From positions 2,985-66,984 of the IMG/VR virus record IMGVR_UViG_3300017766_003039: a stretch of 64,000 nucleotides of DNA; one strand, 5' to 3'. The position numbers and the translations under genes are program-made. The notes beneath the pieces were generated by a model. It saw only the letters and a program-made list of their open reading frames with translations, was not told the DNA's origin and made no database searches. Positions 5,353 to 32,839 of this stretch are shown here, in pieces. This DNA comes from a virus. Lineage: Duplodnaviria; Caudoviricetes. Each line of letters starts with the position of its first letter. Position 1 is the first letter of the stretch.

Positions 5353-5669
5353 AGCGGCCCATCACAAGCAACGCCGACGAATGGCAGCTTTGGCTTCAGG
5401 ATCACGCCGACAGCGGAGACGCCTATAAGGCAGTCCAGATTGCTGAAGCCATCGACACCGCCCGCCTCTCCTCCTCCAAGCGGATAGAGGAACTGGAGAA
5501 GGCGCTGGAGAGAATTAGCCGAACACCAACTATGCCTTTTCCTGACGCCGGCGCGCATTCAGTGGCAGCCTGGGGCAGTGCCGTTTATTTAGCGTGGAAA
5601 CAAATCCAAAACATCGCCCGCGCCGCCCTCTCTCCCTCTAATGGGGGAGGAGAAATGGCCGGCGGCTAG
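5349..5669 (+). CDS. Hypothetical protein, last gene of the + strand block
   Basis: ATGA-coupled; converges on the lysis block with overlapping stops. Confidence 0.65.
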   Translation: MKRPITSNADEWQLWLQDHADSGDAYKAVQIAEAIDTARLSSSKRIEELEKALERISRTPTMPFPDAGAHSVAAWGSAVYLAWKQIQNIARAALSPSNGGGEMAGG

Positions 5670-5866
5670 TCCGGATCCTTGTTGAGCGCCGCCCGCAGCA
5701 CGGCGATCTCGGCATTTAGCGCGTCCCAGTCAGCAGCCGTCGGCTCTCGCCCGCTGGTCAGAATGTCAGAAACCCGGTCCGAGATGTTCTTGATCTCGAG
5801 CCCGGCCTGGATAGCCGTCGGCAGCAGGGCGATGACCTGGAGCAGGATGAGCATGTTGTTGTCCAT
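5666..5866 (-). CDS. Small lysis-region protein with hydrophobic N-terminus (possible spanin partner)
   Basis: MDNNMLILLQVIALLP..., last gene of the lysis cassette. Confidence 0.6.
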   Translation of the reverse strand: MDNNMLILLQVIALLPTAIQAGLEIKNISDRVSDILTSGREPTAADWDALNAEIAVLRAALNKDPD

Positions 5867-5873
5867 GGCTGGC

Positions 5874-6251
5874 CTATTTTACGCTGTAGGTGGTGAGCAC
5901 GGTCTGGAGCAGCTTGACCGCCTCCGTCGCCGACCGGGCCGCGGCGATCGCCACACTGTCCTGGACGCCCGGCTGGCGGACGATGGCCTCTGCCCCGTCC
6001 AGGGCGGCGCCGGCCACGGCATCGGCCTTTCGCAGTTGCAGCACGACGCTCTCGTCCGAGCAGATCGGGGGCGACGCCGGCCGGCCGCAGCGGGGGATGG
6101 CGTTGTACTTTGTGGCCACCACCAGCGCCCCGACGTAGGCCGTCTTGGCAGCAAAGACCGACTGGGCCGGGCTGGGCGAGCCGGACTGGCCCGGAGCCCC
6201 ACAGGCAGCCACGAAACCGGCCAAAGCGATCGAGATAAGCAAGCGGGTCAT
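5874..6251 (-). CDS. Lipoprotein in lysis cassette (spanin-like role possible)
   Basis: Signal peptide with lipobox FVAA-C (MTRLLISIALAGFVAAC). Confidence 0.7.
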   Translation of the reverse strand: MTRLLISIALAGFVAACGAPGQSGSPSPAQSVFAAKTAYVGALVVATKYNAIPRCGRPASPPICSDESVVLQLRKADAVAGAALDGAEAIVRQPGVQDSVAIAAARSATEAVKLLQTVLTTYSVK

Positions 6252-6262
6252 GGGGACCTCCT

Positions 6263-6568
6263 TCAGACGGGGCTAACGCCGTTAACCTTGGGATCGAGGG
6301 CCGCCGCCATGGCGCCCGCCGGGGCCGTGGGATCGACCGCCACATGGACGCCGGGCAGGGCGCCGGCCGCCGCCACTACCTGCTTGTCGGTCTTGCGCAG
6401 CAGCCCCCACACGAAGCTGATCGCCGGCGGCACGACCACCAGGGCGACCGTCAGCAGGTTGTTGATCTGGCTTTGGGTGGCCCCCTGCGAGACCAGGTAG
6501 CCAGCGAGCGGCCCGCCAGTGGTCAGGAGCCAGCGGACGATGCTTTCGATCTGTGCTTGATTGGGCAA
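6263..6568 (-). CDS. Holin-like membrane protein
   Basis: Two hydrophobic segments, directly downstream of the endolysin. Confidence 0.6.
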   Translation of the reverse strand: MPNQAQIESIVRWLLTTGGPLAGYLVSQGATQSQINNLLTVALVVVPPAISFVWGLLRKTDKQVVAAAGALPGVHVAVDPTAPAGAMAAALDPKVNGVSPV

Positions 6569-6577
6569 TGTAGCCTC

Positions 6578-7117
6578 CTAGTCGTCGTTCAGTTCATCGA
6601 GCCGGTTGGCCCAGCCCGCGGCGAAGATGGCCTGCCGGTGATCCTTGCCGACATAGCGCAGCAGCAGTTCCCAGCGTTCGGATTTGATCCGGTAGTAGAG
6701 CTCGGGGATGTTCTTGCACAGCGCCAGGGCCGCCCGGGTCTTGGGCCCCAGGTCGCCATCGACGCCGCCGGGATTGAGACCCATGCCGAGCAGGGACGTC
6801 TGGAGCGCCTTGGTCGCCGCGCCAGGCCCGCTGTTCACGCCGAAGTCGACCATGAATTCCTGTAGCTCGGGATCCTCGATCGCATCAAAGCCCGGGGCAT
6901 AGAAATAGTTCTTCCGGTAAATCTGCCGGGCAACGTCGATCGGCAGCATGGCCACCTCTTCGGCCGTCACCGGATAGCCGCGCCACTGGGACAGGGTGGC
7001 CTGCGTGATGCCCCAGCAGGTAGGGCCGCCGGCGTCGGCGCTGTTATTCACATAGCCGCCTTCACGCTTGATGATCTTGCTGATCAGGTCTTCGACCTTC
7101 TGTGACGGAACAGCCAT
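6578..7117 (-). CDS. Endolysin, glycoside hydrolase family 108 with peptidoglycan-binding domain
   Basis: IIKREGGYVNNSADAGGPTCWGITQ...DFGVNSG...FAAGWANR; true start MAVPSQK at 7117. Confidence 0.92.
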   Translation of the reverse strand: MAVPSQKVEDLISKIIKREGGYVNNSADAGGPTCWGITQATLSQWRGYPVTAEEVAMLPIDVARQIYRKNYFYAPGFDAIEDPELQEFMVDFGVNSGPGAATKALQTSLLGMGLNPGGVDGDLGPKTRAALALCKNIPELYYRIKSERWELLLRYVGKDHRQAIFAAGWANRLDELNDD

Positions 7118-7491
7118 CAGTCGTCTCCTACCCGGTGCGGCTTCTTGTGCCAGACGGCCTCGCGGAAGATCGCCAGCACCTTGTCCATGAACCGGCCGTG
7201 CCGTGCGCACCAGCCGACGTTGACCAGCACCGACATCCACGCCCCGGACGTAATGATCGCAGCCAGCGACCAGATCATCATGCCGCTATTCCACGGGATG
7301 AAGATCGCCAAGATTGCACCGCCGAGCCAAAGCAACCTTGCGTAGGTCAGCGCGTTACGTTCATGGTTCACCAGCAGGGCATAGAACAGGAGCCCCGCAT
7401 TCACGGTGGCGACCAGCGACATGCCCTTCCAGAACAGAGGGGTCGACGCGCTCCAGAGCACATGCTGGAGATTGTTGGGATCGTTCATCAC
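7117..7491 (-). CDS. Multi-pass membrane protein (holin/antiholin candidate)
   Basis: About three hydrophobic helices; coupled to the endolysin. Confidence 0.6.
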   Translation of the reverse strand: MMNDPNNLQHVLWSASTPLFWKGMSLVATVNAGLLFYALLVNHERNALTYARLLWLGGAILAIFIPWNSGMMIWSLAAIITSGAWMSVLVNVGWCARHGRFMDKVLAIFREAVWHKKPHRVGDD

Positions 7492-7820
7492 GGCTTTTCC
7501 TTCTTGCCGAAGCGATCAATGAGCCAGCCAGCGACCGAGCCATCACGTTCAGTATACGCCTTCACAATAGGGTAGGCGCCGAAGCCCGCCCCCAGTCCGA
7601 TCGGCACCACGAAGAACACCGGCAGCGCGAGATATTCTGCCAGGAAGAGATAGCCGGAGGCCGAGAACAGGCACCCCAGCGCCGTCGCCTGAAGCGCACG
7701 CCATAGGTCGAATTGCTTCAGGACCGCATAGCCCAAGCTCGCAAACAGGGACAGGACCGTGGCGCCGGCCATGCCTTCCTGGTGCTTCGACAGCAACGTC
7801 CGCAACGGGGAATCGTCCAT
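7488..7820 (-). CDS. Multi-pass membrane protein (holin candidate)
   Basis: About three hydrophobic helices, basic C-terminus GKKEKP. Confidence 0.6.
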   Translation of the reverse strand: MDDSPLRTLLSKHQEGMAGATVLSLFASLGYAVLKQFDLWRALQATALGCLFSASGYLFLAEYLALPVFFVVPIGLGAGFGAYPIVKAYTERDGSVAGWLIDRFGKKEKP

Positions 7821-8057
7821 CTAGGGTTTCTTTTCCTCCGGGGGCTTCGGCTTCTTCGCCTCGAGTTCTTTGCGGGCCTGCGTCACGGCGGCTGCACAGA
7901 TGATCAGCCATTCTTGGTCGGTCGCAGCGCGGCATGCGCGCCCATACAGGATCACCGCCGTGTCGACCTCGGCATCCGACTTCTCGATGGGATTCCGCTG
8001 CTCTTGGGCCGCAGCCGGCCACGCGAGAAGAAACAGAGCAATCGCAACGCGCTTCAT
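7821..8057 (-). CDS. Small exported protein with Sec signal peptide
   Basis: RBS GGGAGG; MKRVAIALFLLAWPAAA-QEQ; two Cys. Confidence 0.65.
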   Translation of the reverse strand: MKRVAIALFLLAWPAAAQEQRNPIEKSDAEVDTAVILYGRACRAATDQEWLIICAAAVTQARKELEAKKPKPPEEKKP

Positions 8058-8067
8058 CGGTGCCTCC

Positions 8068-8895
8068 CTAGTAAGCACATGCCCAGTAGGTGACGGCATC
8101 AGACAAAAGGAACGCCGATGAGAGAGAAATGACCCGGAGTGCCGTAGTCGTAGGGGCCGCCAGCGCTGCCACCATGATGATAGCCGTGGAGCCAATAATA
8201 CTGTTGCCCGCATACATGCCGTAAGTCCAAGTGGCCGCCGCAGGAAGGGCGGTGCCAGATGTAACTGTATAATCTCCGGCGGCGTTCATGGTGATCGTAG
8301 CCGTGTAGCCGACGTTCCGGGTGACCGTGGTGCCACCGCCCGTCCAGGTGACGCAGAGGTAGGCGATGCGATCGGCCGCGGCGGCAAAGGAGGTGGCGTT
8401 CCCGCTGCTGGTGACTGGGCCCGTCAAATTGGCATTCGTCGTGACGGTGCCGGCCGTCAGTCCGGCAGCAGTACCCGTCAGGTTGGTGGCCACACCGGAT
8501 GCCGGCGTGCCTAGTACCGGGGCAATCAGCGTAGGCCCGTTGTTCAGAACGACCGTCGACCCGGTGCCGGTTGTCGTGGCCGCCGCCAGCGCGGTGCCGT
8601 TGCCTGCCAGCACTGGCGAATTGATCGACGTCGAAAGCGTAATAGCCGGCGTCGTAGTGGCCGTCGCCACTGAGCCCGCAAGCCCGTTCGCGCTGACGAC
8701 GGAAACGCTGGTGACCGTGCCGGAGCCGCCGCAGGCCTGATTGCCGACCTTGCCGGCCGCGACGTACAAGCACTGATTATTGGTCCCGCCGATAACCGGA
8801 GTGCGGCCAATGGCTATTTCATTTCCACCCGGGATCTGAGCTAGGGCGGGAAATGCCAGCAACGCGGCGAATAGGCCAATCAGGATGCGCTTCAT
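8068..8895 (-). CDS. Thr/Gly-rich fibre-like protein with signal peptide
   Basis: MKRILIGLFAALLAFPALA-Q; GTVTSVSVVSANG and TLIAPVLGTPASGVATNLTG motifs typical of phage fibre shafts. Confidence 0.7.
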   Translation of the reverse strand: MKRILIGLFAALLAFPALAQIPGGNEIAIGRTPVIGGTNNQCLYVAAGKVGNQACGGSGTVTSVSVVSANGLAGSVATATTTPAITLSTSINSPVLAGNGTALAAATTTGTGSTVVLNNGPTLIAPVLGTPASGVATNLTGTAAGLTAGTVTTNANLTGPVTSSGNATSFAAAADRIAYLCVTWTGGGTTVTRNVGYTATITMNAAGDYTVTSGTALPAAATWTYGMYAGNSIIGSTAIIMVAALAAPTTTALRVISLSSAFLLSDAVTYWACAY

Positions 8896-8950: not shown

Positions 8951-9508
8951 CTAGGGGGTAGGGCCGGCCGGCGATCCGGCGATGGGAGCCCGGCGCTCGA
9001 GGGAAAAGGGCGTGAATTCACCATGGGCCTCGGCCGCACCCACCAAGTAAGCACAATACGCTGCTGCCACACAGTCAAAGTACCCGAGATGGCGACGCAC
9101 CCTATTGCGGGTTACCGAAACCTTCCATTTGCCCAACGGCTCAAACCAACTAACGCCCCGGAAGCCAGACGTATTGGTGCTGCGTAATTTGCTGTTGGTC
9201 GCATTCTGCGAGTCTGTCGCCTTACGAAGGTTGCACCAGCGATTGTCTGCTCGGCACCTGTTCACATGGTCTATTTCTTCTTCGGGCCACTCGCCGGTCA
9301 TGTATAGCCACGCCAGCCGACCGCCAACATGCTTCTGCCGATTGATAGAAATGTGGACATAGCCCTGATTGTTAATGGTCCCGGCTATTTTCCCGACCAT
9401 CCTCGGACCGCTTGTTGCTTCCGCGATCCAGATGAATTGCCCCGTCAGCGGCGAATATGACAGTCGCCGCCTTATCTCTATTTCGTCCGGCCGTATCGTT
9501 TGTGCCAT
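8951..9508 (-). CDS. HNH homing endonuclease with C-terminal AP2 domain
   Basis: EIDHVNRCRADNRWCNLR...QN...NTSGFRGVSW...HLGYF...A...Y; lower GC than its neighbours. Confidence 0.92.
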   Translation of the reverse strand: MAQTIRPDEIEIRRRLSYSPLTGQFIWIAEATSGPRMVGKIAGTINNQGYVHISINRQKHVGGRLAWLYMTGEWPEEEIDHVNRCRADNRWCNLRKATDSQNATNSKLRSTNTSGFRGVSWFEPLGKWKVSVTRNRVRRHLGYFDCVAAAYCAYLVGAAEAHGEFTPFSLERRAPIAGSPAGPTP

Positions 9509-12500: not shown

Positions 12501-15004
12501 GCCATTTCCCGGATCGCCTGCGTCATGGGCGCGTACTTGTCGAATAGCGCGGTGTAGGACTCGTGCATGAAGGCTTTGATGACCGGCGGCATTTCCTTCT
12601 TCTTCAGCGCGGCCAGCGTCTCCTTAACGACGTGCTCGTCCTCATTGTAGGACCGCACCACGGCGCCGACGGCATCGACCGAACTGGCCTTGTCATAGGC
12701 GATCTTGTTGGCGGCCGTGGCATCCAGCGCGGTCAGCAGATCAGGATGCTCCTTCTGCATGAACGCCCGGAACGCCGTCGTGAACCCGGGCGCCTGCCTC
12801 TCAGCATAGGCCGGATTGTTCAGGAACAGGCGCACCCACTCGGCGAAGCCTTCGTTGACGCGCGCCTTGTCCTTCTCGTAGTCCATCGGCGCGAGCTCGG
12901 TTTCAAATCGCTCCGTCAGGTCTGTCAGTTCCTTGCCAATCTTGGCCTCAAGCGCGTGGCCGGCCTCGTGGCTCACCACTTCGAAATCAGGAACCTCACG
13001 CACCCGCACCACGCCAGTCCGCGGGCTGAATTGTCCGGACAGGTCCCGCGACTGCACGCGGCCCTGTCGCAGCGGGAAGTCCAACGCCTTCGCCAGATCG
13101 AACGACATCTGCTGAAGGCTGCGCACGGCTAGGTCTTTCTCCGGACTCGGCGCACCCGAAATGCCGTCGTCCGGGCGCACCGTCTCGCCCTCCATCCGGC
13201 CGCCCTTTTTGCGCTGGGCAATGCCTTGGACGTCATCCGGAATTTTGCGGCCAAGCAGATCACCCTGCGCACGGGCATCGGTATCGAACATGCCGCCCGG
13301 CGCCGCGTTGCCGCCACGCAGCGGCTTGGCGCCTTCCGCCTCGAGACGCTGACGATCGGTGATCGGCTCGACGCCCGGGATCAGGGTTTGCTCGCCTTGG
13401 GCCGTGCGCTCAGTCGTCAGCGCCGGCCCTCCTAGCCGTTCTGTCCCAATGGCTGCGGCTTGGGCCCCAAGCCGTTCTCCGCCACGTCCGCCGCCAGTTG
13501 CGCCGACCTCGCCGCCTCCAGCAGGTCCGCCTTCTTTTCCGGGTTCAGGGACGCGGCCTTCTGGAAAATCGCCGCCTTTCGCCGCAGTGCCTCCGGACTC
13601 AAACGGGACATCATTTGGAGCTCTCCCTGTCAATCCAGCCGTGGGCGACATGCCCTGCAACGTGCGCTCGGTGCCCTGCCCGAACGACGCCAGCTTGCCC
13701 TCTTGGTAGGTGAACGGCTGCGACGCATTCCAGCGATCGTAGTTCTCCTGGATCCGCTGCGCCTCGTCCCAGTCTGCCTTCAGCCGGCTGTCCGGCGTGT
13801 CGATGTCCGACAGCTTGATCGCCTTGGCCTCGACGTCGGCATACCACTCGTCTAGCGCACGCTCGAGAGCAGCCTTGGGATTCTCGCCCGGCGCCCGGTC
13901 GTAATACTTCGACAATTCGACGCCGACAGGCTCATCCAGATCGTACCGCTTCAGCAGGCCGTCGATGTCAGCGCCGACTTCCTCCCGGAAGGCAGCGAAG
14001 CGCGCCTCTTCCTTATACTTGGCGCCCTGAAGGCCATAGCCCTCCTGGATGCCCGCAACGACGTCGTTGAAAGACGTGGGCGGTCCCGGCTCGTATTGGC
14101 GAGCAACGGGCGCTTCCGCCGGAACCGCATCCGTCCGCGGCACCACGCCGCGCTCCAACGCGCCCATCTCGTCGGCGATCACCGAGTTCACATACGCCGA
14201 GTCCATCTTCCCCAGATCGGCCAGCATCCGGCGCGTCATCAGCCGGCCGCCAATCTCCCCAACCTGGTGTCCGCCGGCGCCGATCACGCCGCCCAAGCCC
14301 ATCGACAGCACCGTCTGCACCGGGTCGTATTGGTCCTTCACGCCGGCGCCGATGTTCGCGGCTTGGATAACCGGGTCCGTCACGCCCTGGATAACCGCCT
14401 GCTGCCCGGCCGCGCTCAGCGTGCGCGCCAGCCACGTCGCCCCCTTGGCGCCCCAGCCGATCCAGCTTTCCGGGCTGATCATCGTGCCCTCAAGCTGGCC
14501 GGCAAACGCCACCAACGCCTCAGCCGTCGAGCCGAAACCCGGAATCATGTCGTGCTTGGCAAGGTCCGCCACGACGCGCTGGTATTCCGCGCGCATCTCA
14601 TCGTTCACCGCCTTACGCTCAGGCGTCACGTCCGGGCCGTCCGGCGTCTCGTAGATATGGGCAAGCGCGGACAGGCGCATCGAGCCCGCCAAGCTGCCCC
14701 GGTAGAAGCCGTCTTGCCGGTTCAGGCGATTGCGCTCGGCGAGCTCTACGCCATCGTCTGGCGGGTCATTCCGGAATTGCGAGAAGAAGTTGCCCCCCGG
14801 CGCGACCGGTTCCGTCTGGGTCGACGGCGTGGCCTGTACCGGAGGCGCAACGCGCCGCCGCGGTAGTCTGGCAATCGTGGCTCGCGCAGCAGCGGCCTCT
14901 GCCGCCTGGCTGCCTTCACCGGGCTCCGCAGGTCGAAGCGAAGGCGCGGGAACGGGGGCATCTGTAGCCGTGAGTACGCCAACGTCATCGGGATCGTCAG
15001 CCAC
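9509..15004 (-). CDS. Large internal virion/ejection protein, polyvalent type (HExxH metallopeptidase-like region; LPD38-like C-terminus)
   Basis: 1831 aa at the ejection-protein position; VVSHEAGHALE...NEGFAEW; C-terminal IVVVPKPFELG motif. Confidence 0.8.
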   Translation of the reverse strand: MADDPDDVGVLTATDAPVPAPSLRPAEPGEGSQAAEAAAARATIARLPRRRVAPPVQATPSTQTEPVAPGGNFFSQFRNDPPDDGVELAERNRLNRQDGFYRGSLAGSMRLSALAHIYETPDGPDVTPERKAVNDEMRAEYQRVVADLAKHDMIPGFGSTAEALVAFAGQLEGTMISPESWIGWGAKGATWLARTLSAAGQQAVIQGVTDPVIQAANIGAGVKDQYDPVQTVLSMGLGGVIGAGGHQVGEIGGRLMTRRMLADLGKMDSAYVNSVIADEMGALERGVVPRTDAVPAEAPVARQYEPGPPTSFNDVVAGIQEGYGLQGAKYKEEARFAAFREEVGADIDGLLKRYDLDEPVGVELSKYYDRAPGENPKAALERALDEWYADVEAKAIKLSDIDTPDSRLKADWDEAQRIQENYDRWNASQPFTYQEGKLASFGQGTERTLQGMSPTAGLTGRAPNDVPFESGGTAAKGGDFPEGRVPEPGKEGGPAGGGEVGATGGGRGGERLGAQAAAIGTERLGGPALTTERTAQGEQTLIPGVEPITDRQRLEAEGAKPLRGGNAAPGGMFDTDARAQGDLLGRKIPDDVQGIAQRKKGGRMEGETVRPDDGISGAPSPEKDLAVRSLQQMSFDLAKALDFPLRQGRVQSRDLSGQFSPRTGVVRVREVPDFEVVSHEAGHALEAKIGKELTDLTERFETELAPMDYEKDKARVNEGFAEWVRLFLNNPAYAERQAPGFTTAFRAFMQKEHPDLLTALDATAANKIAYDKASSVDAVGAVVRSYNEDEHVVKETLAALKKKEMPPVIKAFMHESYTALFDKYAPMTQAIREMAIAIRDKSGVPVDLKAAYNPEKMIRLLDRSRQGAVDAMQYGVTPRDSVTPDGPSLTDALVLATGQTSAWGAWDPVRLRDFDTYLIARRAVDLWRRFDAGELANPPVAFSPGDAAMAVRELEAAFPTFKDAGEMVQGYARQILRKKFESGLLKADSYQAILDTDGFYVPFYRDRRDLPGSGGSGTGGAMEGGPGLVDATHRIKGSSRDIYSPVESLMRDTFLMEHQVRLNDIVNALGQFGERAGVAGGKYIERIPAFEARKHVVPLGEILENKVREMGMTKAEGDAFLASMGDLAREDPLMGSFFKMEQTSGKGEPIVFSKQGGELVAWRVMSEKEGYPLYELLTAAPDAISDVWVQLIGTAAGIKRAGITTNPVFALSNYIRDQFAAAILRSDYIPILSGLRGMADEINQAPAARQYAAAGGVSGGAATGPIDRAVELEIDALRKRGFAVQRFTSFKGLLELASFTEAGTRNSIVAKVYETKKSQGLSDVEALAEAVKEAQDIMDFSRHGSRTLAITKMIPFLNATAQGLDKARRTMIEPLWQRMRDGQVFAEDSDTFKNALMAWAKMGGLGAATGAAWAAINWEKEAYRDASVKFKATHIVVPYGNKIVVVPKPFELGLGFTLGEYAFARLMKDDQRAGGQFMEAAWDVLKLPLQDIPLVTSGTELALGKSLFTGRDIVPSALQGLPSEMQFTDRTSEAAKWLGQQTGMSPIKIEYFVGSQFGNWGRDALALSQGVGEDAPAKDFDDRIFLRRFVKDPTRSSDAVTKFWDFMGRTTGKYNQSLGAYDTLVKGFQEQKAAEFLSKLPAAEKSFVTLRSAADENGKPAFSADEKRLHPLQRAYDAVTIVNGMRKEMATNNFATYEGGARVKLDPEMRRDLLDNIRELGQMEMRNALVALGEPGYVGRPILDVNDVMLKIRHLSPEVANELATRYATAKIYKTEEVVKVWPRAQRDLSRFGSGADIQGLSYEAKGAGYEFGGERVRKPAKRRVSIEGSP

Positions 15005-17519
15005 CGCGGCCTTCTTTCTTGAAGATCACCGGGAATTTCTTCACCACGTCCTCAGCAGCCTTGTCGCCATATTCCTCACGGAATGCACTCAGGCGCTCAG
15101 GGTTGGCAAGAAGAGCCTGTACGGCACGCCCCGGCGGCGTGATGTTGATCACAGGCGACCCCTCAACCCCGGTGTCATTCTCCGGATTGCCGATCACCCG
15201 GGGCTGAGCACGCTGGCGCCCGGCGAAGTTCGGGCCGCGGTCGACCACGTTGCGATCGCCACCGGTGCCCGTCGGGCCCCATGCCGCCTTCTGGGCAGCA
15301 TCGACATCGCGCGCAAAGTCCAACTCCCGGGCGTCGATTTCGGAAATGCCCTCGCCGATCGCCATCTTGCTTATGATGCGGCCCGCCACCTGGGCCGTCT
15401 CGACGCTCACCTTGCGGGCCCGTAGCGCATAGGCCATGGCCGCCGGCGCATCGTCACCAAACATCTTGCGGAAGTTCTGGCCCATCTCCTCCAGCGCCTT
15501 CTTCTGCTCGATCGGCGACGGCGGCGCCCGCATCAGCGGCTCGGTCAGCTTCAGCCCTTCAGCCTTCGTAATGACCGCCTGATACTCCGGGTCGATCCCA
15601 AGGATATCCTGAGCGTTCTTGCGGGCAGCGGCCACGGCAGCGAACGTCTCCGGCTGCTTCGGGTCATATAGCTTCCACGCCGCCTGTACCGCCGGCATGC
15701 GGTCTACCGCGCCGGCCGGATCCTCGTACCGCTGCTTCGTTATCCGGTCGGCCTCTTTCTGTAGGCGCTGGACCTTTTCGACCTGATTGGCATAGCCCGG
15801 CGCATAGACGCCGCCCTCGCCCGGCTTGGGCATCCTGGCCTCGACCACCCGGCGGATATCCTGCTCCGACATCGTTTCGAACGAATGCCGGTCCGCACCG
15901 AATTGCACCTCGTTCACATACTCCTGATATTTCACCGGGCCCGTTGTGGGGCCGTACTGCTGGACAAAGCTGCTTTCAGGAATGGGCGACGTCGTGGCGC
16001 CGGTCATCATGGCTTCCGCCGTGCTGTCCTTCACCTGACTGTCAAAGGCGGTCTTGGTCGCGATCTGGGCCGTGCGCGAGGCCTGATAGGTGCGGTTGGC
16101 CTGGGCGATCGCCGACGCTTTGGCCTGCGGTGTCAGGCTGGGGTCGTTCTCGATAGCGTTCATCACGCTGGCCTGGTCCGGCAGCGAGTCGCGCCCCTCC
16201 GGACCGACTTGCCCCTTCACGTTGGCGCCCTCGATCGCGCGCCGGCGGGCATTGATTCCGCCATTGTGGGTGCCCAGAGCCGTGATGGCAGCCGCCAGCT
16301 TCTCGGTATCTCCGGCCTTCGCCGCTTCTCTCACCGTGGCAAGTTCCGGCTTCGACAGGGTGCCGTAGTTGTAGGCGATCGACGTCAGCGACGCCTTGGC
16401 GCGGGCATCGAGCTTGTCCCATGCCTCTTGGCCAATGGCCTTGCGCGCGTCCTGCTGGCTCAATCCGGCACGCCGGGCCAGGTCGCGCTCGGCGTCCTCC
16501 TTGGTCACGACGGTATCCTTCGTCACCTTGGAATAGGTGCCATCGGCGTGCGTCACCGTGTCTGAGCCGTAGCCCACTCGCCATTCCGTCTTGGCGCCCG
16601 GCGACTTGTCCTCGTAGGCCGCGCTTCGGAAACCCTCAAAATGCCGGATCACCCCCAGCGTATCGTCACCAGCCTTCAGTGACGTGCCGCCACCGATAAT
16701 GCGGTCCGCCGTCTCCTGCCCCACTTGCTGGTCGGCTCGAGCCCGGAACCGGCTGGAGAGATTGTCGTAAAGCGTCCCGGCCGTGGCCTTGTTCTTTTCC
16801 AGCATGCGCATCGCCCGCGCCGGGTCTTCGACGGCGATCGCATCCAACTGCACAGCAAAGGCATCCCGCTTCCCGCGCTGCACGGCCTCCTCGTACATCG
16901 GGTCGCCCGGCTGCGCGCCGTCCATCTCGGCAAGTTTGACATAGGCAGAGATCAGGTTCGACGTGCCATTGCCCACGGCCTCGACGTCGGTTGGCTTCAT
17001 GGAGATATCTTCCATGGCCAGCTTGGCGCTCGCCTTGTGCGTCCCGGTCGCCCAGACCTTCTCCTGCTGGGTGGCATAGTTGCCGACTTGGGCATTGGTG
17101 ATGTTCCGGAAGCGACGCGAGGATCCATCGAAACGCATCTGCTGTTTAGCCGTGAGCAAGTTGCCACGGGTCTGCTGCATCAGCGTCTCAATTTGCTTCT
17201 CGACCGCAGGGCGGGCTTCCAGCGCCGCCTTGCCTTTCAGGTTCAGAAACCCGGGCGTCCCCGTTTCCGGGTCGCCGTAAAGGACCTTGCGGACGCCCTC
17301 TTCGTAGTTGTTGATCTGCTCGTCAGCCGCGACGTCACCGAAGAAGTTCCCGGCCTTGATCAGGTCAGCGCCAACCTCCCGCGTCGCCGCCCCAAGCTGC
17401 TGCTGCGCACGGCCGACGCCGGCACCAAAGGCGTCCGGCGTGGCTTGGCTGGAATCCTGAAACGTCGCCGGCGCGCGGCCTGGCTCGGTCTCGGGAACAA
17501 GGGGTGCGGAAACAGCGAT
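14997..17519 (-). CDS. Internal virion/ejection protein with GH24 lysozyme domain; probable ATC start
   Basis: Frame is open 113 codons upstream of the track's ATG (17180) to an ATC 5 nt after AAGGAGG; IRHFEGFRSAAYED...WRVGYG...SLTSIAYNYG...RRRAIE lysozyme motifs. Confidence 0.8.
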   Translation of the reverse strand: MAVSAPLVPETEPGRAPATFQDSSQATPDAFGAGVGRAQQQLGAATREVGADLIKAGNFFGDVAADEQINNYEEGVRKVLYGDPETGTPGFLNLKGKAALEARPAVEKQIETLMQQTRGNLLTAKQQMRFDGSSRRFRNITNAQVGNYATQQEKVWATGTHKASAKLAMEDISMKPTDVEAVGNGTSNLISAYVKLAEMDGAQPGDPMYEEAVQRGKRDAFAVQLDAIAVEDPARAMRMLEKNKATAGTLYDNLSSRFRARADQQVGQETADRIIGGGTSLKAGDDTLGVIRHFEGFRSAAYEDKSPGAKTEWRVGYGSDTVTHADGTYSKVTKDTVVTKEDAERDLARRAGLSQQDARKAIGQEAWDKLDARAKASLTSIAYNYGTLSKPELATVREAAKAGDTEKLAAAITALGTHNGGINARRRAIEGANVKGQVGPEGRDSLPDQASVMNAIENDPSLTPQAKASAIAQANRTYQASRTAQIATKTAFDSQVKDSTAEAMMTGATTSPIPESSFVQQYGPTTGPVKYQEYVNEVQFGADRHSFETMSEQDIRRVVEARMPKPGEGGVYAPGYANQVEKVQRLQKEADRITKQRYEDPAGAVDRMPAVQAAWKLYDPKQPETFAAVAAARKNAQDILGIDPEYQAVITKAEGLKLTEPLMRAPPSPIEQKKALEEMGQNFRKMFGDDAPAAMAYALRARKVSVETAQVAGRIISKMAIGEGISEIDARELDFARDVDAAQKAAWGPTGTGGDRNVVDRGPNFAGRQRAQPRVIGNPENDTGVEGSPVINITPPGRAVQALLANPERLSAFREEYGDKAAEDVVKKFPVIFKKEGRGG

Positions 17520-17538
17520 TGGAGCCTCCTTGGCGCCC

Positions 17539-17691
17539 CTACTTGGGGACGTCCAGAGTGTCGATCAGTTCGCCAATGCTGGCGTATTCGGTATCGGGGA
17601 CGCCCCCGTCGGGGCCGCTGTCGTCGTGGCCCGGCACACCCGCACAAGCCATCAAAATCAGGCACAAAGCCATTACGAAAAGACGAGTCAT
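17539..17691 (-). CDS. 50-aa lipoprotein inserted between ejection genes
   Basis: RBS AGGGAG; MTRLFVMALCLILMA-C lipobox; mature part repeats the upstream protein's C-terminus. Confidence 0.7.
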   Translation of the reverse strand: MTRLFVMALCLILMACAGVPGHDDSGPDGGVPDTEYASIGELIDTLDVPK

Positions 17692-17770
17692 TGATGTTCT
17701 CCCTTGGTTAAGCGGGGGAACATTATCACACTCCCGTATCGGGGACACCGCCGGCCGGCCCGCTGTCGTC
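17591..17770. repeat. 35-bp imperfect direct repeat (17591-17625 and 17736-17770)
   Basis: 30/35 identical; 4 of 5 mismatches are synonymous third positions. Confidence 0.85.
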
Positions 17771-18355
17771 GCTGCCCGTAACCTCGCTGTCCCACTTAAA
17801 TTTCATCGGCAGCGACGAAGCCGTCTCGAGGAACGATCCCGCACCCGAAAGCATGGCCGCATCCCCGCTGGTCTCCCCCGCAATCCGGGCATTCTGAGCC
17901 TTCATATCCAGCAAATTGGCATCCGACTCGTACTGGTCCTTCTTGTTGCGATAGCCCCAATTCTCAAGCTGGCCCTGGTGGATGATGTTCTCGGCATCGA
18001 GCTTGTCGACCATGCGCTGGCCGGCCCGGACCTGCACCGCGCTGCCCGTATTGATGTCGACCCCGGACGCCGCCTGCCCGGTCGTGATCTTGCCCGTGCG
18101 CTGGGCCGTCTTCATGCCGTGATTGGCCTGCTTGGTGAAGGCCGTGCCGATCGCGTTCTCACCCAGCATCTCGGCAATGCGGGCGTTATTCCGAGCAACC
18201 TGGGCCTGGTACTGGTAGGCCTGAGCCGCGCCCTCTCCCGATCGCCGCGCACCTTGGGCGCCCTTGGCCGAACCGCCGAGTTTGGCCGCCGTTCCCGCGA
18301 CTGAAGCCGCGGCTGAGGCTCCGGCGAAGATCGTTGCTGCGCTAATTCCGGCCAC
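17726..18355 (-). CDS. Internal virion protein, T7 gp14-like core/ejection protein
   Basis: Ala/Gly-rich N-terminus; QAASGVDINTGSAVQV motif; position before the larger ejection proteins. Confidence 0.8.
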   Translation of the reverse strand: MAGISAATIFAGASAAASVAGTAAKLGGSAKGAQGARRSGEGAAQAYQYQAQVARNNARIAEMLGENAIGTAFTKQANHGMKTAQRTGKITTGQAASGVDINTGSAVQVRAGQRMVDKLDAENIIHQGQLENWGYRNKKDQYESDANLLDMKAQNARIAGETSGDAAMLSGAGSFLETASSLPMKFKWDSEVTGSDDSGPAGGVPDTGV

Positions 18356-18854
18356 GGGGCTCTCCGGTGATGATCGTGTGGTTCAGTTCCGGGTCCTTGT
18401 GGGAAACCAGCAGATGCGTTTCGTCGGTGAAGTCCGACTCGGCCGCGCCCACGTCCGTCGCTTCGCTCGGCAGGATCATGGTCAGGTAGACGTCAGACCG
18501 CGCGATGAACGATTGCTTCCGCCCGGCCGCGGCCGGCACGACGTTGTAGCCATCGAGCTCCAGTTCAGCCGAGCCGATGTAGACCAGCGCGCAGCCCTGC
18601 ACGATCAGGATCGTCGGCACCTTCACCAGCACGCCGGTGATGATCACCCGGGCCGGGATCTTCACCGTCCGGGCGTACATGCCGCCGTGAATGATATGGC
18701 CGGTGACGATCGAGACTTGGGGCATCGTCAAAAGAACGGCCTCAAGGTCGCGGACGTTCTCGATCTCGTGCGGAAGCATCGCCGGGATGGCCGCGCCCGC
18801 AAAGGGCACCAGCGGCGCCGGCTCGTGGGCCAGGGCTGGAAGGTTCTCAGGCAC
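18342..18854 (-). CDS. Cupin-like podophage tail-region protein
   Basis: GTG after GGAGG; HIIHGGMYARTVKIPA...G...GRKQ pattern. Confidence 0.65.
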   Translation of the reverse strand: MPENLPALAHEPAPLVPFAGAAIPAMLPHEIENVRDLEAVLLTMPQVSIVTGHIIHGGMYARTVKIPARVIITGVLVKVPTILIVQGCALVYIGSAELELDGYNVVPAAAGRKQSFIARSDVYLTMILPSEATDVGAAESDFTDETHLLVSHKDPELNHTIITGEPRGRN

Positions 18855-19389
18855 CGGCCGCCTCCGCCGTGTACTCGAGCCCGACGGCATAGCCGGTCCC
18901 GATGTAGTGCCGATAGTCCGGCGTCTCTTCCAGGTGCCGCTTGAGCGTCGCGCGGCCCCGTTTGGTATAGGCCGCCCCGGGCGCATCCGGGGCATGGAAC
19001 CCCAGAAAGCACACCAGCCGCAGAGCCGCGTCGTCCCCGGCCAGCACCGTCGTATCCAGGCGCGTCTTGGTCGACATGGCCTCATCCAGCACCCGGCGGA
19101 TTTCCTTCACGATCACCCGCGGCCGCAGGGTGATCTCCTCCGTCAGGACCATCCAGATGCTGCCCTCGCTCGAGGCGTACTGCCCGATGATGCCGGCGAT
19201 CGCCACCAGCCGGCCGTCCAGCAGCCACGCATAGCGCAGGTAAGAGCGGTCGAAAGAGTCCCGGAGCTCGCGGTGGGCATTGAGGCCGATATGGGACAGG
19301 GCCACCCGATGATCGAACCGCATGCGCCGCACGATGGCACCGCAGTGAAAGGGACGCGCTTCGATCCGCTGGAGGTTCATGGTCCCCAT
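18847..19389 (-). CDS. GNAT-fold internal virion protein A (T7 gp13-like)
   Basis: DGRLVAIAGI...IWMV...ALRLVCFLGF; follows the nozzle gene; start could be 19380. Confidence 0.7.
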   Translation of the reverse strand: MGTMNLQRIEARPFHCGAIVRRMRFDHRVALSHIGLNAHRELRDSFDRSYLRYAWLLDGRLVAIAGIIGQYASSEGSIWMVLTEEITLRPRVIVKEIRRVLDEAMSTKTRLDTTVLAGDDAALRLVCFLGFHAPDAPGAAYTKRGRATLKRHLEETPDYRHYIGTGYAVGLEYTAEAAGA

Positions 19390-25393: not shown

Positions 25394-26779
25394 CTACTGC
25401 ACCCGGAAGGCGGTGACGGTGCTGTCTTTGCCGGCTCCTGAATAATCAAACTTCATCACGCCGGTAGCCGTAGAGGCAGAAGTGCATGAGATACGGATAT
25501 TACTTGCAGGAGTCGCAAGATAGCCACTCAGAGCAACAACCTGCGACTCGTTGGCCGTTTGCGGAACGCTTACCCCAGAGGCAATCACCGTAGTTCCGTC
25601 CCACAGCTTGCATTTCAAAGTAGCGGCGCCGGCCGTATCAAGAACGGTCACTGCGCCTGAAGCAAACCACGTTCCTGTGCTGCCCTGAGCAACCGTGGGA
25701 CCTGTCTGGTAAACGCCAGGATTGTTGAGAGGAACATCTCCCGACAGCGAGTTGGTGATCTGCGTGCCGCTCGGCACATACGCCGTTGATGCCGTATAGG
25801 CCGCAGTGCCAAGCGTGCCGCCGGTGCCGATGTTCAGCGTGCTGCCGTCCGTGCCCGCGAAGGTGAGTGTATTGCTCGCCGTAAGGGTCTTGGCCGCCGC
25901 GATGGTGAGCACGCCGGTCCCGGCCGTCCAAGTATTGCCGTTGTAGGTTTTGTTAGTGAATGCCTCGCTGCCAGCCAAAGTAGCCAGCGTCCCGGAGCCT
26001 GTCGCCGGAAACGTCACATTGGTCGTGGTCGTGGTCGTTAGCGTCAGCGCGTTGGCGCCCGACGTCGTGAAGGCGCCGGCCGTCGTGAGCGTGCCGCCCA
26101 GAGTGATGTTCTGGTTGCCGATCTTGGTGATCGTGAGCGCGCCGGTGCCGGTGTTGACCGTCGCATCCCCGCCTAGCGTGAAACCGCCGAACGCGCCCGC
26201 ATTGTTGTACTGGATCTGGCCATTGGTTCCAGCAACGCCGGGAAATGCCCCGCAGTCCTTCAGCAGCGTGCCGGTCGTATTGTTCCAGCAGGCGACATTG
26301 TTGACCGTGCTCGAGGCCGGCCCAACCACATAGCCATCCGTGAACGGGAATTGATAGTCCGCGCCGTTGACCTTCAGCGTCAGGGGAAGCGCCGAGGCGC
26401 CACCGGCCGAGCCGAAGCTGATCAGGCCGCTGCTCGAGACATTCGCCGACAGGCAGAGGTAGTGATAACCCGCCGCGTTGGTCGATACGGCGTCCTGGAT
26501 GCAGAACACTTCCCCGTTGGGGCCGGTGCCCTGCCCGGCATAGGGAGCCGTCCCCGTGCCGCGCGCCGTGATGTTGAGTTCCTTGAGGCCCTGGCCGGTC
26601 GTGTTGCCGCCAGCGGGGCCGCTGTCCTGGACGATCGGCTGAGCGCCGCCAGAACTGGAATAGGCGGGAGCGCGACCCGGAGACCAGGTTCCGCCCTGTA
26701 GTACCGTCGCCTGGCTCCACGCCTGAACGGGGAGAAGGACCGCAATCAGCGTGATCAACAGGCGCTTCATAGACTTCAC
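25394..26779 (-). CDS. Fibre-like structural protein with signal peptide
   Basis: MKSMKRLLITLIAVLLPVQAWS-Q; GTNGQIQYNNAGAFGG and TLATLAGSEAFTNKT fibre motifs; six Cys. Confidence 0.7.
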   Translation of the reverse strand: MKSMKRLLITLIAVLLPVQAWSQATVLQGGTWSPGRAPAYSSSGGAQPIVQDSGPAGGNTTGQGLKELNITARGTGTAPYAGQGTGPNGEVFCIQDAVSTNAAGYHYLCLSANVSSSGLISFGSAGGASALPLTLKVNGADYQFPFTDGYVVGPASSTVNNVACWNNTTGTLLKDCGAFPGVAGTNGQIQYNNAGAFGGFTLGGDATVNTGTGALTITKIGNQNITLGGTLTTAGAFTTSGANALTLTTTTTTNVTFPATGSGTLATLAGSEAFTNKTYNGNTWTAGTGVLTIAAAKTLTASNTLTFAGTDGSTLNIGTGGTLGTAAYTASTAYVPSGTQITNSLSGDVPLNNPGVYQTGPTVAQGSTGTWFASGAVTVLDTAGAATLKCKLWDGTTVIASGVSVPQTANESQVVALSGYLATPASNIRISCTSASTATGVMKFDYSGAGKDSTVTAFRVQ

Positions 26780-27147: not shown

Positions 27148-27591
27148 CTAGCCCTCCGCGGGCTTGTCGGGCGGAGACTTCTCGGCAGAAGCGTCCTTCT
27201 TGGCCGTGCCGCCGGCGCCGAACGATAAATCGAAGTGATCGGCGATCTCCTTGTTGTGCCGCGAGCCCATCGTGCGATGCGCCTCGCGCATGCTGCCGTG
27301 GTGATCCATGCGCTCCTTCTCGTGGCGCTTATGGATCGCCTTCAGGCCATCCAGGAACATATCCTTGGGGGATGCGGCCTCTTCGGCCTCACCGTCGGCA
27401 GCCGCCGCGGCGCTATCGACCTCGGCCGCAGGGGCCTCTTCGCCGGCCTCGCCCTCGGCGGCAGCAGCCTCGGCTTCCGGCTTCTTCTCCGGATCGGGCT
27501 TCTCTTCGTCCTTGGGCTTGTTGTCGTACAGCGGGCTCTTGGTCATGGGCTTTATCCTCGAGGTAACGTCTGCCAATGTTGGGCTAGGCAT
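27148..27591 (-). CDS. Acidic/His-rich head-cluster protein starting with a copy of the MCP N-terminal peptide
   Basis: MPSPTLADVTSRIKPMTKSPLYDN...; second possible start at 27546. Confidence 0.75.
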   Translation of the reverse strand: MPSPTLADVTSRIKPMTKSPLYDNKPKDEEKPDPEKKPEAEAAAAEGEAGEEAPAAEVDSAAAAADGEAEEAASPKDMFLDGLKAIHKRHEKERMDHHGSMREAHRTMGSRHNKEIADHFDLSFGAGGTAKKDASAEKSPPDKPAEG

Positions 27592-31789: not shown

Positions 31790-32839
31790 TTAGGAGACGG
31801 CGCTTTCGGTGATCAGGAGGCGATCGCTGACCTTCACCGGCACGCCGCGGAACACATCCTGCGGCCGGCCAGCGGCGTCGTTGATCGTGAGCAGCACGTT
31901 GCGATCGCGCATGCCCTGGGCGTCCATCCAGAAGCGGATGGTGCGGTTGGCGTAGATGACCGGACGCACGCTCGGGGTCGGATCCGTCGGCGAGTCGGTC
32001 TTCATGATTCCGGAGACGCCCTTGCCGAGCGCCGGCGGCAGCATGACCGCCTGCGACAGCAGCAGGAACAGGTCGGGAGCACTAGCGCCCGCGAGACCGG
32101 CGCTGGTGGTGTCGAGGTTGGCGATGCGCACCGCGTTGCGCCAATCCTCGGGCACGATGTTGCCCTGCTGGCGGAAGTAGGTGGTGTAGGCCTCGTAGCG
32201 GTTACCCACGTTGTCGTAGGCCGGGACCGTGTCGGCCTTGTCCTCGGAGACCAGGCCCGCCTTGGAGTTGCGCGGGTAGGTGCCGTACACCGTGCGCTCG
32301 CCCCAAGCGACCAGCCAGAGCGAAGCGTTCGAAGCGCCGACGCCGCCGCCGTTGATCACGTTCACCGCGTTTTGTGCGGTGGCCTGATTGAGCGTGTTGT
32401 AGAACAGGCTCAGGCCCAGGAAGGCGGCCGGGTTGGTGTTGGTGTTGCCGTACCAGAGGGTCTGCTCCCAGGTCTGGCCCATGCCTTCGATGAAGGCGAC
32501 GTCCTCGGTCGTGCGGAACGCCTCGATACCGGACGGGTTGGCTTCGGCCAGCATACGGTCGATCTGGCTGTAGCCCTCGAGCGAGCCCATGCCCAGGCGA
32601 GCCTTGCCGGTGGTCGACTTGCTGTAGCCGACGCCCTGATTCAACTGGCGGAAGTTGCCGGCCGGGAGCGACGTGCGGTAGCTGAACTCATGCCCGAAAA
32701 TCTCGGTGCCTTCCTTCAGCGGCATGTCCTCGACCAGCGCGGTGCTCTGCGAGAGCATTTCCGCGATATACATCTGCTTGCCCGCACCGTCGATACGGGA
32801 GGTAACGTCGGCCAGCGTCGGCCATGCACCTGTCGCCAT
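31790..32839 (-). CDS. Major capsid protein (HK97 fold, BPP-1 Bbp17-like)
   Basis: PTLAD...IAEMLSQ...RTSLP...FRQLNQG...EDVAFIEGMGQ...LWYGN...DWRNAVRIAN...FRGVPVKVSD.L..TE. Confidence 0.93.
   Translation of the reverse strand: MATGAWPTLADVTSRIDGAGKQMYIAEMLSQSTALVEDMPLKEGTEIFGHEFSYRTSLPAGNFRQLNQGVGYSKSTTGKARLGMGSLEGYSQIDRMLAEANPSGIEAFRTTEDVAFIEGMGQTWEQTLWYGNTNTNPAAFLGLSLFYNTLNQATAQNAVNVINGGGVGASNASLWLVAWGERTVYGTYPRNSKAGLVSEDKADTVPAYDNVGNRYEAYTTYFRQQGNIVPEDWRNAVRIANLDTTSAGLAGASAPDLFLLLSQAVMLPPALGKGVSGIMKTDSPTDPTPSVRPVIYANRTIRFWMDAQGMRDRNVLLTINDAAGRPQDVFRGVPVKVSDRLLITESAVS

Follow-up and report, generated by a model that had tools for sequence, protein, structure and literature searches.

A probable 50-codon lipoprotein gene repeating the tail peptide of a gp14-like ejection protein, tentatively read as a phage exclusion factor

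Exclusion of one phage by another at the cell envelope has been described for several systems. P22 SieA, expressed from the prophage, targets the podophage ejection proteins that build a trans-envelope conduit (PMC10883804). Llp of phage T5, a small periplasmic outer-membrane lipoprotein that is expressed early, mediates exclusion and acts from the periplasmic side (PMC9586334). The lipoprotein Ltp of Streptococcus phage TP-J34 blocks DNA entry, its target being the tape measure protein, according to Bebeacua 2013 as cited in PMC3952083. Ejection in T7 begins with gp14, which makes an outer-membrane pore, the N-terminal region of gp15 is thought to join gp14 after ejection, and the visualised segments reported for gp14 are residues 1-78 and 37-139 only; the gp14-like gene adjoins gp15 in podophages generally (PMC8954989). 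Here we describe a locus in a 64-kb stretch (the window, 63% G+C) of the 66,984-bp virus contig IMGVR_UViG_3300017766_003039, where a 50-codon open reading frame (ORF) with a lipoprotein signal peptide stands between a gp14-like and a gp15-like gene and repeats a 12-residue peptide from the C-terminal tail of the gp14-like protein. This ORF is probably a real, translated lipoprotein gene, as judged from the sequence features below, and its product is a tentative candidate for an exclusion factor.

The ORF reads MTRLFVMALCLILMAC-AGVPGH-DDSGPDGGVPDT-EYASIGELIDTLDVPK, that is, a signal peptide with its lipobox, a linker, the motif and a tail, and the mature lipopeptide would be an acidic peptide of 35 amino acids. 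Under the PROSITE PS00013-type rule, a lipoprotein precursor has Lys or Arg among its 7 N-terminal residues, followed by a hydrophobic core without charge and a lipobox Cys at positions 15-35. By inspection only, the ORF showed an M-T-R N-terminus, the uncharged core LFVMALCLI and the lipobox L-M-A-C16; the Met at -2 does not conform to the [ASTVI] consensus in its strictest form, and the alleles P0021 and P0022 satisfied the rule as well. A Shine-Dalgarno sequence, AGGGAG, is located 7 nucleotides (nt) 5' of the ATG. The gap between the two ejection genes is filled exactly, by the gp14 stop codons (TGA TAA), 34 nt, the lipoprotein ORF and 19 nt that include AAGGAGG, followed by the gp15 start. 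Third-position G+C was 25/30 in codons 21-50, like that of the neighbouring genes, and 11/20 in codons 1-20, with local G+C dipping to 0.45-0.48 at the 5' segment; such a low value is usual for gene starts and signal peptides and also fits a foreign segment.

Relatives drawn from 90% clusters added two lipoprotein alleles and four gp14 sequences to those of the window; their sources were three Logan contigs (66.7 kb, 54.7 kb and 28 kb) together with several short contigs, representing at least six runs. The lipoprotein ORF was intact in the three alleles, in at least seven contigs from six runs, with its start, Cys16, motif and stop kept. The changes found across the alleles were V6A, I12V, L13M, G18A and E41D, and those in the hydrophobic core were conservative (V/A, I/V and L/M). 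Figures for third-position G+C, for the ratio of replacement to silent substitution rates (dN/dS) and for Fisher tests were counted by hand from the alignments.

The gp14-like ORF ends in SDDSGPAGGVPDTGV, followed by its stop, and the observation of the first-pass annotation that the lipoprotein repeats this tail peptide right after its lipobox was borne out by both ORF readings. The two copies lie in a direct repeat of 36/43 nt (17591-17633 and 17736-17778) whose arms are spaced 145 nt apart; the 4.3 kb searched contained no longer direct repeat. The earlier count of 30/35 identical nucleotides, with four of five changes synonymous, proved correct, the fifth being a replacement (A/D). The back-translated 12-residue pattern occurred in exactly two places in the 64 kb, against 0.00 expected from 100 shuffles. 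Sister contigs from at least five other sequencing runs, in which the gp14 tail is SDDSGPDGGVPDTGV, carry the same 12-mer DDSGPDGGVPDT in that tail and in the lipoprotein, and its two DNA copies differed at 7 of 36 positions, by seven synonymous changes and no replacement. A hand count put 26 of 108 possible single changes as silent, which gives seven silent changes out of seven a probability of about 5e-5 under neutrality.

Comparison of the alleles extended this pattern. Within the motif stretch, the two gp14 alleles differed by 7 nt, which comprised five silently changed codons and the A/D codon. The three DNA copies of the motif (two gp14 alleles and the lipoprotein) were about equidistant, at 6-7 of 36 nt, and the 2 to 4 changes placed by parsimony on the lipoprotein branch were all silent; the lipoprotein copy was unchanged in all alleles. 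These differences, mostly silent between the gp14 alleles, indicated that the gp14 tail motif is under purifying selection and that the lipoprotein copy, which is old at the level of its DNA, has not decayed.

We propose that the lipopeptide faces the periplasm, mimics the gp14 tail and competes in the assembly of the ejection channel, which would amount to exclusion. For this full mechanism, inferred as it is, we set a probability of roughly 0.3. The lipoprotein would be translated within the late operon, and its translation may supply ribosomes to gp15 at its weak ATC start. Lipidation would anchor the product to a periplasm-facing membrane, with the inner leaflet of the outer membrane as the probable site, as residue +2 is Ala; in E. 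coli, lipoproteins with Ala at +2 are sorted to the outer membrane. The lipid-anchored copy would show the motif six residues from the membrane, the same motif that ejected gp14 would expose at the outer membrane. Most likely it would compete for the partner of the gp14 tail, either the gp15 N-domain or a host envelope component, and such competition would disturb channel assembly when kin superinfect, or when progeny eject into debris. A complex prediction of the mature lipopeptide with gp15 residues 1-440 returned no answer and weighs neither way.

Several observations weigh against exclusion by a gp14-tail mimic. The lipoprotein was found only in its own 90% cluster in a full HMMER scan of 1.84 billion representatives and, likewise, only in its own cluster in a word-indexed search of 5.8 billion proteins; a search among longer proteins found none with the lipoprotein's tail. 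The gene is located in a late structural operon, in contrast to the early llp of T5 and the prophage-expressed sieA of P22, and a two-hexamer scan found no complete promoter or terminator of its own. The mature lipopeptide is short, and its structure prediction gave no confident fold. Co-variation of the peptide between gp14 and the lipoprotein, which the first-pass annotation had put forward as a check, was not seen, as the sole motif substitution (D to A, in gp14 of the window) has no counterpart in the lipoprotein; this is a single event and weak evidence. The earlier claim that selection acts on the peptide fared better, in that it was supported by the seven synonymous changes and no replacement of the sister contigs; some of that signal may nevertheless belong to gp14, since a copy derived from a third gp14 allele would carry silent changes that reflect selection on gp14 and not on the lipoprotein.

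The recent history of the ORF gave no further help to exclusion. Between the window and its sister, the lipoprotein ORF showed five replacement changes and one silent, a ratio of 5:1, where the gp14 and gp15 genes on either side gave about 35:85 (Fisher p of about 0.012, by hand). The replacement rate of about 0.045 per site equalled that of the neighbours, and the silent rate of about 0.03 was roughly ten times lower. The flanking genes contributed 18 amino-acid differences among 87 nt differences in gp14 and 10 among 33 in gp15. Divergence was 11.5% in the 5' half of gp14 and 16% in its 3' half (about 25% in the last 70 nt), 3.4% (7/205) in the cassette from the gp14 stop to the ATC, and about 8% in the first 400 nt of gp15. 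We read this profile as a cassette recently exchanged or swept across diverged backbones, with its left junction inside the motif. The recent changes are too few to show constraint, so that selection on the whole ORF is neither proved nor disproved, and its recent evolution is compatible with neutral drift as well as with function.

Table 1. Positions of the features discussed, given in window coordinates.
Feature	Position	Strand	Basis or detail
Mini-lipoprotein ORF (probable gene), 50 codons + TAG	17539..17691	minus	ATG 17691 to TAG 17539
Predicted lipoprotein signal peptide, codons 1-15	17647-17691	minus	lipobox L-M-A-C; Cys16 at 17644-17646
Motif copy A, codons for DDSGPAGGVPDT in gp14 tail	17735..17770	minus	43-nt repeat arm 17736-17778; sister contigs read DDSGPDGGVPDT
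Motif copy B, codons for DDSGPDGGVPDT, 6 residues past the lipidated Cys	17590..17625	minus	repeat arm 17591-17633
RNA hairpin (predicted)	17694..17723	minus	3' arm holds the lipoprotein Shine-Dalgarno; starts 4 nt past gp14 stops TGA-TAA
gp14-like internal virion (ejection) protein, 209 amino acids	17726..18355	minus	phrog_418, homologs, synteny, AlphaFold model
gp15-like ejection protein, central phage-lysozyme domain	14997..17519	minus	PF00959 at 3.9e-9; PHROG matches; homolog alignment
Probable gp15 start: AAGGAGG 17525-17531, 5-nt spacer, ATC 17517-17519	17517..17531	minus	19 nt past lipoprotein stop
DSGPAGG, N-terminal region of fibre-like ORF with Sec-type signal peptide	26606..26626	minus	kept as DSGPAGG in sister lineage
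Lysis region	5666-7820	minus	membrane proteins 7488-7820 and 7117-7491; endolysin 6578-7240 (phrog_315)
Lysis region, distal part		minus	101-amino-acid membrane protein 6263-6568; 125-amino-acid lipoprotein 5874-6251 (MTRLLISIALAGFVAAC); 66-amino-acid protein with N-terminal membrane segment 5666-5866

The rival that survived best is a translational relay, which we regard as possible, if doubtful. According to this explanation, the ORF is a recombination by-product that arose when the gp14 3' end was partly duplicated, and selection acts on its being translated, which opens a hairpin and brings ribosomes to the weak ATC of gp15, the peptide itself being functionless. The gp15 start is indeed unusual. 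The gp15 frame is open from 17564 and contains no ATG, GTG or TTG before 17180, and the N-termini of gp15 homologs align just after the AAGGAGG-5 nt-ATC arrangement. The ATC and its Shine-Dalgarno were identical in six contigs from different runs, for which reason a sequencing error was rejected, and gp15 probably starts at this non-canonical codon. As 19 nt separate the lipoprotein stop from the ATC, ribosomes that complete the lipoprotein ORF may be needed for gp15 translation. That gp15 lacks a canonical start and that AAGGAGG and ATC are kept directly after the ORF stop favour the relay, as does the abutment of gp14 and gp15 in all more distant relatives, so that the ancestral coupling would have been from gp14 to gp15. 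The five replacements against one silent change, and the orphan status of the ORF, also count in its favour. A fusion of the lipoprotein to gp15 by +1 frameshift was considered and rejected, as the frames overlap by 8 codons only, neither a pause nor a slippery site is present, and export of an internal virion protein would make no sense.

The RNA between gp14 and the lipoprotein bears on coupling with gp14. The hairpin appeared in both the minimum-energy and the centroid folds (-12.3 kcal/mol, z = -2.1; 5 of 200 shuffles were as stable), and its sequence was identical in all relatives, leaving no covariation to read; the RNA structure of the whole cassette was not significant (z = -1.4). As the hairpin starts 4 nt after the gp14 stop, it would open while a ribosome terminates on gp14, which suggests that lipoprotein translation is coupled to gp14 termination. 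An extended -10-like sequence, TG-T-GATAAT, was also noticed at 17722-17730 (minus strand), overlapping the gp14 stop codons; a transcript starting just 3' of it would be without the hairpin 5' arm that covers the lipoprotein Shine-Dalgarno.

A relay would need no canonical lipoprotein signal peptide, however, and an exported lipopeptide of no use would, late in infection, burden Sec, Lgt and Lsp. Three alleles have the Cys, the lipobox and the 12-mer invariant, and the motif peptide equals that of gp14 across seven silent differences.

We consider it unlikely that the ORF encodes a lysis or outer-membrane accessory, comparable to an o-spanin or a colicin-release lipoprotein, that carries the same envelope-targeting motif as gp14. 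The late operon, the 50-residue precursor and the Pro/Gly/Asp-rich mature peptide do resemble Rz1 and colicin lysis proteins, and an ESM look-alike cluster included Lysis_col, at a score of 0.82 that equals the noise level. Against this, the lipoprotein had no Pfam, PHROG or NCBIfam match, and the colicin lysis family PF02402 was unmatched even at E up to 10. The ORF has no adjoining i-spanin or lysis gene, as the lysis genes are located about 10 kb away (at about 5600-8200), and its sole mature Cys is the lipidated Cys16, leaving none for o-spanin disulfides. The lysis region has its own 125-residue lipoprotein, followed by a 66-residue membrane protein, after the endolysin, and these two may form an atypical spanin pair. 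A signal peptide copied from the 125-residue lipoprotein was considered, since it has MTRL...AC.G.PG in common with the mini-lipoprotein, with a pairwise E-value of 7e-5; the DNA alignment of the two ORFs was unconvincing, and lipoprotein signal peptides resemble one another anyway.

It is improbable that the ORF is not a gene at all, that is, an untranslated remnant of illegitimate recombination with a lipoprotein-like N-terminus by chance. The ORF is a short orphan, absent from all distant relatives, its recent changes are mostly replacements, and its Shine-Dalgarno is buried in the hairpin, all of which a remnant would explain. Untranslated neutral DNA should, on the other hand, diverge no more slowly than the flanking silent sites (about 0.2-0.4 per site), whereas the cassette reached only 3.4%. 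The Shine-Dalgarno, ATG, full lipobox rule and exact fit to the gap co-occur, and the frame preserves the 12-mer.

The third occurrence of the motif raised another explanation, which we hold to be very unlikely, in which DSGPxGG is a docking tag on the gp14 tail, the lipoprotein and the fibre-like protein for a common periplasmic partner or modification, with the lipoprotein as a cooperating anchor. The first-pass annotation had placed DSGPAGG near the N-terminus of the fibre, and a pattern search agreed: the looser DSGPxGG matched at three sites, where 0.01 was expected, and the third of them is in the fibre-like ORF. The fibre-like ORF keeps the A of the motif in both lineages, and each of the three carriers is predicted to arrive in the periplasm or at the outer membrane. 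Only seven residues are common with the fibre, however; they lie in Gly/Ser/Pro-rich sequence, were picked post hoc, and come without the GVPDT half. A further reading, and a far-fetched one, is that DDSGPxGGVPDT would be a periplasmic short linear motif linking the gp14 tail to a host envelope system, comparable to the TolB box in disordered domains of colicins, with that system occupied after infection by a lipid-anchored, Pal-like mimic, all as part of a genome-wide re-use of recoded tags (capsid N-arm, head-cluster tags) with recoding driven by avoidance of RecT deletion; the colicin TolB box is DGSGW, against D-D-S-G-P here. The end of the lipoprotein tail, DTLDV, resembles a TonB box; a likeness of the motif to the thrombospondin-type-3 calcium loop, DGDGVPD, was rejected, as no Pfam match was obtained at E up to 10.

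The lipoprotein gene is restricted to one species-level phage group, and the best reading of the sequences is that it is young and lineage-specific. At seven distinct distant loci (L001 to L009, some of them duplicates), gp14 abuts the large gp15-like gene without an ORF between them; because of this arrangement, the cassette appears to be a lineage-specific insertion. The gp15 Shine-Dalgarno is abutted by the lipoprotein stop here and by the gp14 stop in the relatives, and a longer ancestral gp14 tail is possible for that reason. Ancestral gp14 may have ended in ...DDSGPxGGVPDT-EYASIGELIDTLDVPK, with a segment of about 100 nt inserted together with a duplication of the motif. Gene birth would then have joined a low-GC segment, bringing a stop, a Shine-Dalgarno and a signal peptide, to the copied gp14 tail, and recombination between the repeats would restore the ancestral long-tailed gp14. 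Neither the ancestral (repeat-deleted) form of gp14 nor the motif elsewhere was matched in viral contigs or in JGI metagenome contigs. A simple 145-nt tandem duplication was rejected, as only about 30% identity remained in register upstream of the 43-nt repeat. A repeat pair of a diversity-generating retroelement was also rejected, since the seven differences include G/C, C/G, T/C and C/A and are not at template adenines alone.

Among the phage's genes are those for a RecT-like annealing protein and an exonuclease, and direct repeats 145 nt apart would, if identical, be deleted quickly. Silent divergence of the repeats is expected on this argument, because RecT and the exonuclease would delete identical repeats while the intervening DNA is needed. 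A second recoded peptide copy was noticed in the genome: the capsid N-arm PTLADVTSRI (32792-32821) recurs at the start of a 147-residue ORF at 27148-27591 (27553-27582, minus strand), with 7 of 10 codons differing silently. The existence of the recoded capsid N-arm copy arguably raises the prior that the lipoprotein's peptide copy is functional.

The identity of the gp14-like neighbour was drawn from several sources. The protein matched phrog_418 ('internal virion protein') at 2.5e-10, and it had 14 distant homologs of at most 48% identity, and nine of 15 homologs matched the Pfam family T7_gp14 (PF24072); the window's protein by itself had no Pfam match. A profile search of the PDB returned nothing, and in a fold search the T7 infection entry 8e4g_a, which we take to be T7 gp14, appeared at rank 30 only, with an E of 1.1. 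The gene is located upstream of the gp15-like and gp16-like genes and encodes about 200 residues, in keeping with the T7 gp14 family (PMC8954989). The AlphaFold model showed a long helical hairpin (residues 28-97 and 105-179) and a low-confidence C-terminal tail from residue 175 to 209, in which the motif sits. The tail is probably disordered, judging from the model, which makes the motif a candidate for a short linear motif. Among the gp14-like homologs, the tail after a conserved S-x-x-x-K-W differed in length and sequence, and none carried the 12-mer.

The surrounding genes form a podophage late region on the minus strand, with a T7-type ejection operon (gp14-like, gp15-like with lysozyme, gp16-like). 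The order is terminase and portal; protease and major capsid protein; three tubular-A-like genes; tubular B; short fibre; gp14-like; lipoprotein ORF; gp15-like; gp16-like. Tubular A is present as three paralogs, tubular B has 1300 residues, and the gp16-like protein has 1831 residues in the window and 2175 in the sister lineage. The best matches of the gp15-like lysozyme domain were to phages of Agrobacterium, Caulobacter, Brevundimonas, Rhizobium and Ruegeria, which hints at an alphaproteobacterial host; no cultured phage closely related to this genome was found.

Other parts of the late region varied between the lineages. The slot between tubular B and gp14 is mosaic, being occupied in the window by a 247-residue short fibre (18342-19085, minus strand) like Bbp23 of Bordetella phage BPP-1, and in the sister lineage (L010/L015) by two unrelated ORFs of 180 and 171 residues. 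A homing-type endonuclease gene of the HNH type lies 3' of gp16 in the window (8951-9508, minus strand). An Endonuclease_7 gene (L015 2187-2921) was present in the sister lineage only, where it lies between the fibre and tubular A genes on the opposite strand. Sec-type signal peptides open the fibre-like and small late ORFs at 25394-26779, 8068-8895 and 7821-8057 (minus strand), reading MKRLLITLIAVLLPVQAWS-Q, MKRILIGLFAALLAFPALA-Q and MKRVAIALFLLAWPAAA-Q, respectively; on fibre-like ORFs such signals are odd for virion parts. The 461-residue fibre-like ORF was 81% identical to that of the sister overall, with the last 100 or so residues far more diverged, consistent with a swap of the receptor-binding domain.

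The locus would matter in more than one way. If the lipopeptide acts as proposed, it would be the first exclusion factor that copies a piece of the phage's own ejection machinery. Competition with the gp14 tail would, moreover, suggest what the C-terminal part of gp14-type proteins is for, a part not visualised in the T7 structures reviewed (PMC8954989). Independently of function, the cassette offers a clean, datable case of phage gene birth, in which a signal peptide was joined to a duplicated tail. A possible rule is that direct repeats encoding needed peptides drift apart silently in phages with their own recombinases.

Exclusion by the lipopeptide is plausible by analogy, because SieA, T5 Llp and Ltp provide precedents. 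The likeness to P22 SieA is that of a podophage exclusion factor acting on ejection proteins; SieA resides in the inner membrane and has membrane-spanning segments, whereas the lipopeptide has no hydrophobic segment and no homology to it. With T5 Llp, and with Cor of T1 and phi80, the lipoprotein has in common that it is a small phage lipoprotein of the outer membrane, facing the periplasm (predicted here), with its gene beside the entry machinery. No Llp or Cor homology was detected, either as a PHROG, Pfam or NCBIfam match or by HMMER among the 1.84 billion representatives. The 61-residue Llp is folded, contains a disulfide, jams the receptor FhuA and is encoded beside the receptor-binding gene; the lipopeptide, by contrast, has 35 residues and no confident fold, and its gene stands between ejection genes. 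Unlike Llp and Cor, then, the lipoprotein gene here neighbours ejection genes in place of a receptor-binding gene and copies a phage peptide.

Ltp, as far as the cited account goes, is likewise a lipoprotein acting on a phage's own channel-forming protein; it differs from the ORF here in its Gram-positive host, its folded two-repeat structure, its place in a lysogeny module and its siphophage target. Compared with the T7-type gp14-gp15-gp16 operon, the locus agrees in gene order, in gene sizes and in the helical hairpin of a gp14-like protein of about 200 residues, and differs in the extra gene between gp14 and gp15, peculiar to this locus among the 9 related ones inspected, in the ATC start of gp15 and in the lysozyme domain within gp15. 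Among these known systems, the feature is best filed as a lineage-specific new gene among the phage accessory lipoproteins.

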